Sequence record: MT830620.1
Length of the DNA stretch: 3,569 bases
Strand: one strand, 5' to 3'
Origin: Escherichia phage MS2
The notes under the pieces are model-generated. The model saw only the letters and a list, made by a program, of their open reading frames with translations, was not told the origin of the DNA and made no database searches. A program made the position numbers and the translations under genes. Shown here in pieces: positions 130 to 3,569 of the stretch. Positions within the stretch are counted from its first letter, which is position 1; each line of letters starts with the position of its first letter.

Positions 130-1311
130 ATGCGAGCTTTTAGTGTCCTTGATAAGGAATCCGAGACCTTCGTCCCCTCCATCCGCGTTTACGCTGATGG
201 GGAGGTCGTCGATAACTCGTTTTCCCTAAAATACCGTTCGAACTGGACCCCTGGTCGATTTAACTCGACTGGAGCCAGGACGAAGCAGTGGCACTATCCG
301 TCCCCTTATTCTAGGGGTGCGCTTAGCGTCACATCGGTAGATCAAGGCGCCTATAAGCGCTCTGGGTCATCGTGGGGTCGCCCGTACGAGGAGAAAACCG
401 GTTTTGGCTTCTCACTCGACGCACGCTCCTGCTACAGCCTCTTCCCTGTGAGTCAAAATATGACTTACATTGAAGTGCCGCAGAACGTTGCGAATCGGGC
501 GTCGACTGAAGTCCTGCAGAAGGTCACCCAGGGTAATTTCAACCTCGGTGTGGCCCTCGCAGAGGCCAGGTCGACAGCCTCACAACTCGCGACGCAAACC
601 ATTGCGCTCGTAAAGGCGTACACTGCCGCTCGTCGCGGCAATTGGCGCCAGGCGCTCCGCTATCTTGCCCTAAACGAAGATCGAAAGTTTCGATCGAAAC
701 ACGTGGCAGGCAGATGGTTGGAGTTGCAGTTCGGCTGGCTACCGCTAATGAGCGATATCCAGGGTGCATATGAGATGCTCACGAAGGTTCACCTTCAAGA
801 GTTTCTCCCTATGAGAGCCGTACGCCAGGTGGGCACTAACGTGAAGTTAGATGGCCGCTTGTCGTATCCAGCTGCAAACTACCAAACCACGTGCAACATA
901 TCGCGACGTATCGTGATATGGTTTTACATAAACGATGCACGCTTGGCTTGGTTGTCGTCTCTAGGTATCTTGAACCCACTAGGTATAGTGTGGGAAAAGG
1001 TGCCTTTCTCATTCGTTGTCGACTGGCTCCTTCCTGTTGGGAACATGCTCGAAGGCCTCACGGCCCCCGTAGGATGCTCTTACATGTCAGGAACAGTTAC
1101 CGACGTAATAACGGGTGAGTCCATCATAAGCGTTGACGCTCCCTATGGGTGGACAGTGGAGAGACAGGGCACTGCTAAGGCCCAGATCTCAGCCATGCAT
1201 CGAGGGGTACAATTCGTATGGCCAACAACTGGCGTATACGTAAAGTCACCTTTCTCGATGGTCCATACCTTAGATGCGTTAGCATTAATCAGGCAACGGC
1301 TCTCAAGATAG
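130..1311 (+). CDS. mat: Maturation (A) protein, the pilus-binding, single-copy virion protein; 393 aa
   Basis: ORF 130..1311 (ATG start, UAG stop). The translation (MRAFSVLDKESETFVPS...WTPGRFNST...LALIRQRLSR) is near-identical over its whole length to the MS2 A protein as I recall it. Same position and length (393 aa) as in MS2. Confidence 0.95.
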   Translation: MRAFSVLDKESETFVPSIRVYADGEVVDNSFSLKYRSNWTPGRFNSTGARTKQWHYPSPYSRGALSVTSVDQGAYKRSGSSWGRPYEEKTGFGFSLDARSCYSLFPVSQNMTYIEVPQNVANRASTEVLQKVTQGNFNLGVALAEARSTASQLATQTIALVKAYTAARRGNWRQALRYLALNEDRKFRSKHVAGRWLELQFGWLPLMSDIQGAYEMLTKVHLQEFLPMRAVRQVGTNVKLDGRLSYPAANYQTTCNISRRIVIWFYINDARLAWLSSLGILNPLGIVWEKVPFSFVVDWLLPVGNMLEGLTAPVGCSYMSGTVTDVITGESIISVDAPYGWTVERQGTAKAQISAMHRGVQFVWPTTGVYVKSPFSMVHTLDALALIRQRLSR

Positions 1312-1322
1312 AGCCCTCAACC

Positions 1323-1342
1323 GGAGTTCGAAGCATGGCTTC
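1323..1342 (+). promoter_or_regulatory. Coat gene RBS and initiator hairpin (SD GGAG 1323-1326; stem 1330-1334 GAAGC / 1338-1342 GCUUC with AUG 1335-1337 in the loop)
   Basis: Direct inspection of the inverted repeat flanking the coat AUG. A coat initiator hairpin presenting the AUG is described for MS2; the fold is not computed here. Confidence 0.6.
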
Positions 1343-1727
1343 TAACTTTACTCAGTTCGTTCTCGTCGACAATGGCGGAACTAGCGACGTGACTGTCGCC
1401 CCAAGCAACTTCGCTAACGGGGTCGCTGAATGGATCAGCTCTAACTCGCGCTCTCAGGCTTACAAAGTAACCTGTAGCGTTCGTCAGAGCTCTGCGCAAA
1501 ACCGCAAGTACACCATCAAAGTCGAAGTGCCGAAAGTGGCTACTCAGACCGTTGGTGGTGTGCAGCTTCCTGTAGCCGCATGGCGTTCGTATCTGAATAT
1601 GGAATTAACTATTCCCATCTTCGCAACGAACGACGATTGCGCGCTTATTGTTAAGGCGATGCAAGGTCTCCTAAAAGATGGAAACCCAATCCCCTCAGCA
1701 ATCGCAGCAAACTCCGGAATCTACTAA
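1335..1727 (+). CDS. cp: Coat (capsid) protein, 130 aa including the initiator Met; ends in tandem stops UAA UAG (1725-1730)
   Basis: MASNFTQFVLVDNGGT...KDGNPIPSAIAANSGIY matches MS2/R17-type coat protein. The true start is the AUG at 1335 with the SD at 1323-1326, not the upstream in-frame ATG at 1218 used by the ORF track. RNA-binding residues known from MS2 (V29, K43, T45, S47, R49, T59, K61, E63, Y85, N87) are all present. Confidence 0.95.
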   Translation: MASNFTQFVLVDNGGTSDVTVAPSNFANGVAEWISSNSRSQAYKVTCSVRQSSAQNRKYTIKVEVPKVATQTVGGVQLPVAAWRSYLNMELTIPIFATNDDCALIVKAMQGLLKDGNPIPSAIAANSGIY

Positions 1728-1905
1728 TAGATTCCGGCCATTCCAACATGAGGATTACCCATGTCGAAGACAACAAAGAAGTTCAACTCTTTATGTATTG
1801 ATCTTCCTCGCGATCTTTCTCTCGAAATTTACCAATCAATTGCTTCTGTCGCTACTGGATGCGGTGATCCGCACAGTGGAGACTTTACAGCAATTGCTTA
1901 CCTAA
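1678..1905 (+). CDS. lys: Lysis protein L (75 aa, single-gene lysis), +1 frame relative to coat, overlapping the coat 3' end and the replicase 5' end
   Basis: ORF 1678..1905 translates to METQSPQQSQQTPESTNRFRPFQHEDYPCRRQQRSSTLYVLIFLAIFLSKFTNQLLLSLLDAVIRTVETLQQLLT. This has the MS2 L architecture: a basic/polar N-terminal region, a hydrophobic transmembrane segment and the conserved Leu-Ser (LLLSLL) motif. Position is the same as in MS2. Confidence 0.92.
   Translation: METQSPQQSQQTPESTNRFRPFQHEDYPCRRQQRSSTLYVLIFLAIFLSKFTNQLLLSLLDAVIRTVETLQQLLT
1746..1764 (+). promoter_or_regulatory. TR translational operator hairpin (coat-protein binding site, replicase translational repressor and packaging signal): ACAUGAGGAUUACCCAUGU
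   Basis: Exact match to the canonical MS2 operator: stem 1746-1750 / 1760-1764, bulged A at 1751, G-C G-C upper stem, loop AUUA 1754-1757 (wild-type U at -5). The replicase AUG (1761-1763) lies in the 3' arm and the SD GAGG (1750-1753) in the 5' arm. Confidence 0.95.
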
Positions 1906-3538: not shown

Positions 3539-3569
3539 GGTAACTAGCTGCTTGGCTAGTTACCACCCG
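3539..3569 (+). other. 3' terminal hairpin (10-bp stem GGUAACUAGC 3539-3548 / GCUAGUUACC 3555-3564, loop UGCUUG) followed by a single-stranded 3' tail ACCCG
   Basis: Perfect inverted repeat seen directly. The levivirus 3' end is a terminal hairpin plus an unpaired ...CCC(A) tail used for replicase initiation; here the last base is G. Confidence 0.8.

Follow-up and report, generated by a model that had tools for sequence, protein, structure and literature searches.

The question raised by positions 1746 to 1764 of this genome is whether the hairpin around the replicase start codon is the translational operator known from MS2, and whether the coat protein encoded upstream of it has kept the surface with which the operator is bound. 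In MS2, the operator contains the rep start codon, represses rep, and serves as a strong encapsidation site (PMC10610835). The MS2 operator and coat protein form one of the best-studied RNA-protein interactions and are in standard use for tethering and imaging RNA and for VLP packaging.

A field-type MS2 genome

The whole stretch analyzed, here called the window, is a complete MS2-group (Emesvirus zinderi) genome of 3569 nt, given as the plus strand. By megablast against 50,697 phage records, the window was 92.0% identical to MS2 (NC_001417/V00642) with 100% query coverage, and its nearest relatives were DL16 (EF108464; 95.3%), DL1 (EF107159; 95.2%), FrSaffron (94.8%), and J20 (EF204939; 94.6%). 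The genes are arranged in the order mat-cp-lys-rep, with CDS coordinates that match those of the MS2 reference record (Table 1), and this order, a length of about 3.57 kb, and the high nucleotide identity to MS2 are those of Emesvirus zinderi. All four window proteins were exact matches to NCBI entries QNI21282 to QNI21285, which are named Escherichia phage MS2, and the Pfam families Phage_mat-A, Levi_coat, Phage_MS2_lysis, and RNA_replicase_B were matched far above threshold. The window is an already deposited complete GenBank genome of a field-type Emesvirus zinderi strain.

Table 1. Positions of the genes and RNA elements in the window
Feature	Positions	Strand	Basis
Maturation protein gene	130-1311	+	ORF; Pfam Phage_mat-A
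Coat gene, 130 codons including Met, stop codon at 1725-1727	1335-1727	+	Pfam Levi_coat, 222.8 bits; identical to QNI21282.1
Predicted long-range (Min Jou) helix, 5' arm, within coat gene	1428-1433	+	Whole-genome MFE fold
Lysis protein L gene, +1 frame, reading through the operator	1678-1905	+	ORF; Pfam Phage_MS2_lysis, 129 bits
Predicted 10-bp hairpin directly 5' of the operator	1714-1737	+	211-nt and whole-genome folds; covariation
Match to Rfam RF02359 (Bacteriophage MS2 operator hairpin), model positions 1-36 of 36	1729-1764	+	60.6 bits
Predicted long-range (Min Jou) helix, 3' arm, adjoining the operator	1738-1743	+	Whole-genome MFE fold, pairing with 1433-1428
Replicase translational operator (TR) hairpin, -15 to +4	1746-1764	+	Identity to MS2; folds; Rfam RF02359
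Putative replicase Shine-Dalgarno element, GAGGA	1750-1754	+	Read from the sequence; spacing to AUG as in MS2
Replicase beta-subunit gene, 545 codons	1761-3398	+	Pfam RNA_replicase_B, 711 bits; identical to QNI21285.1

At its 3' end (3569), the window reads ...ACCACCCG (CCCG), whereas the MS2 reference, fr, and DL54 end in ...ACCACCCA (CCCA). The terminal A is described as an untemplated addition by the replicase (PMC10610835), and the terminal G at 3569 may be genuine, or it may be an artefact of sequencing, cloning, or the primer. When the coat, replicase, and maturation proteins of the window were looked up in their protein clusters, fragments of MS2 proteins also turned up that NCBI lists under the name "hypothetical protein" and assigns to Listeria monocytogenes, Salmonella enterica, Staphylococcus aureus, Vibrio parahaemolyticus, and Klebsiella pneumoniae. 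We suspect that these bacterial assemblies were contaminated by MS2 RNA used as a control or spike-in.

The hairpin over the replicase start

Positions 1746 to 1764 read ACAUGAGGAUUACCCAUGU / ACATGAGGATTACCCATGT, which is identical to the same positions of NC_001417, and this 19-mer occurs once in the window on the plus strand and zero times on the minus strand. With the A of the replicase AUG (1761) numbered +1, base 1751 is the bulged A at -10 and lies between a 5-bp lower stem and a 2-bp upper stem, and the loop A-7 U-6 U-5 A-4 (bases 1754 to 1757; AUUA) has the four-base form A, N, pyrimidine, A. Base 1756 (-5) is the wild-type U rather than the C of the C-5 variant. A first-pass annotation of this DNA had described the element as the canonical 19-nt MS2 operator in the same terms (bulged A-10, AUUA loop, and U-5), and the description was confirmed.

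The 19-mer folded as (((((.((....))))))) in both the MFE and the centroid solutions, with an energy of -5.3 kcal/mol and a z score of -3.3 relative to shuffles. In 31-nt and 211-nt contexts, the MFE and centroid structures again showed this hairpin. Its pair probabilities ranged from 0.88 to 0.99 when the context spanned 100 to 1000 nt, and the whole-genome MFE fold contained all of its pairs (7/7). Thus, the bulged-A stem-loop, the fold that the annotation had proposed as a check on its claim, was predicted at each length from the 19-mer to the entire genome. Besides, RF02359 was matched with 60.6 bits against a gathering threshold of 40 (E = 4.8e-13). When both strands were scanned for a strict consensus (an A bulge, 2 bp, an ANYA loop, and a lower stem of at least 3 bp), the operator at 1746 to 1764 was the only site in the genome (n = 1), and dinucleotide shuffles contained a mean of 0.18 such sites, with a site having a 5-bp lower stem in 3% of shuffles. 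A chance or artefactual match of the 19-mer was considered and rejected on account of its homologous position, its Rfam score, and its uniqueness.

The hairpin also carries signals for replicase translation. GAGGA, the presumed replicase ribosome-binding site, spans the 5' stem, the bulge, the upper stem, and the first loop base, and the replicase AUG (1761 to 1763) supplies three of the lower-stem pairs. The hairpin therefore encloses the replicase AUG together with the ribosome-binding site and lies downstream of the coat gene, as members of the RF02359 family do. The same bases double as residues His24 to Cys29 of the L protein, according to the codon positions read from the sequence.

We aligned 12 group I genomes (the window, MS2, R17, M12, ST4, DL1, DL16, DL54, J20, FrSaffron, the German isolate, and fr), in which 34% of the sites were variable. 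Within the operator, only base 1755 (-6) varied, and only in fr; when fr was left aside, the 19-mer was unchanged in all 11 MS2-like genomes (the window and 10 others) and stood at the start of a 64-nt invariant run (1745 to 1808), the second longest in the genome. Taken by itself, the match of the 19-mer to MS2 is unremarkable, because an unchanged 19-mer is expected with a chance of about 20% (0.918^19) at 8.2% divergence. The invariance across 11 genomes, taken with the 64-nt run, is stronger evidence than the pairwise identity to MS2. Covariation within group I is uninformative for the operator, since none of its pairs varies there (7/7 without any variation). In BZ13 DL10 (GA group), the loop is AAAA and the -11/-1 pair has changed on both sides, from G-C to A-U, which preserves the helix. 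This is the sole compensatory pair of the operator, and it was contributed by a single genome that is more distant.

Part of the operator conservation may come from overlapping constraints on L codons 24 to 29 and on the start signals of the replicase (Shine-Dalgarno element and AUG). A more radical reading is that such functions, together with a structure that limits ribosome access, are the main reason for conservation of the hairpin and that coat binding plays a minor part. This would agree with the extension of the invariant run well past the coat footprint, with the passage of the L ORF through the operator, and with the fact that about 7.5 to 10% of the 19-nt segments in the 12-genome alignment are as conserved as the operator itself. 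Several observations speak against this reading, however. The sole change in fr falls at -6, the loop position that tolerates any base for coat binding, whereas no change is seen at -4, -5, -7, and -10, even though these bases form no pairs and belong neither to the Shine-Dalgarno core nor to the AUG. Furthermore, the GA group alters the loop together with coat residue 87, as co-evolving partners would, and solved complexes are available for exactly this RNA with a coat protein 97% identical to that of the window. We consider it extremely improbable that coat binding is a minor factor, and we prefer the reading of the hairpin as a coat-bound operator.

The IMG/VR database was also scanned for ACATGAGGANNACCCATGT, which covers the natural variation at -6 and -5, and three hits were obtained, one of them in an MS2 genome, where the two bases are UU. 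The remaining two, in unrelated dsDNA-phage contigs that are otherwise dissimilar to the window, were taken as chance occurrences. These 19-mers, of the form ACATGAGGA-NN-ACCCATGT and with the loops GACAAC and GAAAAC, lie at 5860 to 5878 on the minus strand of contig L015 and at 814 to 832 on the plus strand of contig L014; the motif in L015 includes an ATG and is preceded by a GC-rich repeat that resembles a terminator and carries a T run.

The coat protein and its RNA-binding surface

The coat protein matched Levi_coat (PF01819) over profile positions 1 to 132 of 132, with its score of 222.8 bits standing against a cutoff of 25. Relative to MS2 (mature numbering), it has four substitutions, G16S, E76Q, S99D, and E102A, and residues 17 to 75 and 77 to 98 are those of MS2. 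All 17 contact or specificity positions (V29, K43, T45, S47, R49, S51, S52, N55, K57, T59, K61, E63, R83, Y85, N87, E89, and T91) were unchanged. Part of the list of these positions is taken from papers, and the conclusion is independent of its exact make-up, because residues 17 to 75 and 77 to 98 match MS2 wholly. Among the listed residues, Val29, Lys43, Lys57, Lys61, and Glu63 are taken by us to be RNA-contact residues, as in the structures of Valegard et al. The coat protein also aligned over its entire length with the coat chains of the operator complexes (a sequence shared by 1ZDI, 1ZDH, and 2BU1; E = 7.9e-80), to which it is 97% identical. Accordingly, the alignment to complex structures proposed in the first-pass annotation gave a full-length match with zero substitutions at contact residues, and the claim that the coat protein keeps its RNA contacts stands for the interface, although the protein as a whole is not wild-type MS2 coat.

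Several of these residues have been examined in the MS2 complex. A-4 and A-10 touch Thr45 and Ser47 in different subunits (PMC5007439), Tyr85 stacks on a loop base (PMC1635273, PMC12803234), and Arg49 belongs to an extended RNA-binding patch (PMC12810256). Binding is abolished by N55D and weakened by Y85H and N87L (PMC11789479), complexes of the mutants T45A, T59S, N87A/S, and E89K are found in the PDB (PMC10610835), and the Q-beta operator is accepted by MS2 coat once Glu89 is changed (PMC12724129).

The four coat substitutions lie away from the RNA-binding beta-sheet face. Residues 99 and 102 are presumably near the start of the C-terminal helices. In the dimer, the C-terminal helices of one monomer interdigitate with those of the other, and the AB loop (Gly13-Gly14-Thr15) projects from the outer surface of the capsid (PMC10729756); residue 16 adjoins the AB loop and so lies away from the RNA. 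E76Q is within the FG loop (residues 66 to 82), a loop that is coupled allosterically to RNA binding as the capsid assembles (PMC12356212). Three of the substitutions, E76Q, S99D, and E102A, are common to DL1, DL16, DL54, and J20, whereas G16S (codon 1383 to 1385) was private to the window among the 50,697 phage records, in which the best coat matches reached 99.2%. An effect of G16S on RNA binding is unlikely. The residue is next to the surface-exposed, immunodominant AB loop, and G16S may alter antigenicity. Judging from the sequences of both partners, the coat-operator interaction, which the annotation had predicted to be intact, is probably so.

Flanking RNA, proposed working, and known systems

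The coat stop codons UAA UAG fall in and next to the CUAA loop of the 10-bp hairpin immediately upstream of the operator. Pair 1718/1733 of this hairpin covaries: the window and the majority of field isolates have A-U, MS2, R17, and ST4 have C-G, and the German isolate has G-C. Its pair 1719/1732 is A-U in the window versus an A.C mismatch in MS2. The base changes in this hairpin recode the lysis protein (A14E and R19F). Between this hairpin and the operator lies the 3' arm of the long-range helix. The operator begins three bases after this 6-bp helix. In MS2, the helix couples translation of the replicase to that of the coat protein (PMC5007439). At 1744 (-17), the window has C in place of A, a change that also gives K23Q in the lysis protein; base 1744 was unpaired in the whole-genome fold, and a U1427-A1744 pair at the end of the long-range helix would be lost through A1744C. 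C1744 is a common polymorphism, being shared by fr, DL16, DL54, J20, FrSaffron, and GER_K20. The covariation within 1714 to 1737 and the polymorphism at 1744 are small but useful data for models of levivirus RNA structure.

These changes raise the possibility that the operator and its contacts are intact and that the interaction nevertheless differs quantitatively from that of laboratory MS2, with G16S, E76Q, S99D, E102A, and A1744C shifting assembly coupling or the timing of replicase shut-off. E76Q lies in a loop that responds allosterically to RNA binding (PMC12356212), A1744C precludes the putative U1427-A1744 pair, so that the helix is left with 6 bp and 1744 unpaired, and G16S is private to the window in the phage collection. 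However, because E76Q, S99D, and E102A recur in DL1, DL16, DL54, and J20 and C1744 recurs in the six genomes named above, these are common natural polymorphisms of replicating phages. [quoted passage not shown] A quantitative departure of this kind is very unlikely in our judgment. We likewise assign little credence to the more specific proposal that three changes of this lineage, namely, C1744 (which trims the Min Jou helix to 6 bp), the strengthened, all-Watson-Crick hairpin at 1714 to 1737, and E76Q, together with the window-only G16S, retune coat-replicase coupling and operator-triggered assembly; if true, the strain would be a naturally occurring variant whose kinetics of repression or assembly differ to a measurable extent.

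We conclude with high confidence that 1746 to 1764 is the replicase translational operator and that the operator-coat pair would work as it does in MS2; binding affinity, repression, and assembly nucleation are expected to follow MS2 in view of the identity between the two. The working proposed here is drawn from MS2 biology (PMC5007439, PMC10610835, PMC12356212, PMC9023274). Late in infection, one coat dimer would bind the hairpin across its beta-sheet face, with A-4 and A-10 inserted into two symmetry-related adenine pockets (Thr45, Ser47, Thr59, Lys61, and Val29), U-5 stacked on Tyr85 and read by Asn87, and the backbone held by the basic or polar residues Lys43, Arg49, Asn55, and Lys57. Coat binding would stabilize the hairpin and thereby hide the ribosome-binding site, so that replicase synthesis would be turned off. 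The resulting complex would be a high-affinity nucleation site for capsid assembly, in which the dimer, once bound to the operator, would be switched towards its asymmetric A/B form, the driver of capsid growth, and the operator may be helped in nucleation by neighboring stem-loops between 1700 and 1800. Packaging would be shared with many weaker operator-like stem-loops and with the maturation protein. MS2 mutants with a weakened coat-operator interaction stay viable, and the term "packaging interaction" used in the first-pass annotation therefore overstates the role of one hairpin. The term is right in that the operator is one strong signal, but the maturation protein and numerous further stem-loops are also involved (PMC5007439, PMC10610835).

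The annotation had further called the interaction MS2-specific, which is correct with respect to GA/BZ13 and Q-beta but too narrow within group I, where R17, M12, and the field isolates share the operator. It is likely that the operator-coat pair is a recognition module shared by group I, interchangeable among MS2, R17, M12, fr, and the field isolates, and probably bound as well by the less selective GA-type coat. The identical 19-mer in 10 other genomes, the single difference of fr at -6, and the same residues at 17/17 contact positions in fr, M12, and the field isolates all point in this direction. GA coat is known to tolerate the MS2 operator, with residue 87 setting the preference at -5. 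The breadth of such a module has its limits, for the Asn87 and Glu89 signature and U-5 are of the MS2 type as opposed to GA/BZ13 and Q-beta (for the role of Glu89, see PMC12724129). A shared module refines, and does not contradict, the conclusion that the pair works as in MS2.

The operator-coat feature is already known, and the operator itself is ordinary, so that the significance of the finding goes little beyond annotation. Still, a field-type MS2 genome that is 8% diverged from the laboratory strain retains the interface of both partners, which agrees with strong purifying selection. By implication, MS2-based reagents (MCP and MS2 hairpins) should recognize the RNA and coat protein of this strain, and vice versa.

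Compared with the operator of MS2 and R17 (RF02359), that of the window has the same 19-nt sequence, coordinates, fold, A-10 bulge, AUUA loop, and enclosed AUG. The MS2 coat (PF01819; 1ZDI, 1ZDH) is identical to the window's at residues 17 to 75 and 77 to 98 and differs from it by the four substitutions outside these segments. The flanks of the operator differ from those of MS2 by A to C at 1744 and, in the 5' hairpin, by C-G to A-U and by the A.C mismatch to A-U, within whole genomes that have diverged by 8%. The closest genomes, DL16, DL1, J20, and DL54 (JQ966308), are 94.6 to 95.3% identical to the window, with about 5% of nucleotides differing; they have the same operator and a coat protein that is the same except for the window-only G16S, and several of them also have C1744 and the A-U form of the neighboring hairpin.

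Outside these close relatives, fr has the same hairpin architecture and the same residues at all 17 contact positions, but it carries A at -6 (loop AAUA), and its coat is 86.9% identical to that of the window. The GA/BZ13 group (Emesvirus japonicum) has a homologous bulged-A hairpin with a four-base loop over the replicase AUG and a coat protein of the same fold family. Unlike the window, its operator has an AAAA loop (A-5) and A-U at -11/-1, and its coat has K43R, S52G, N55K, R83K, N87S, and E89D, all six of which are absent from the window. The specificity boundary of the operator-coat pair lies towards the GA/BZ13 group and Q-beta.
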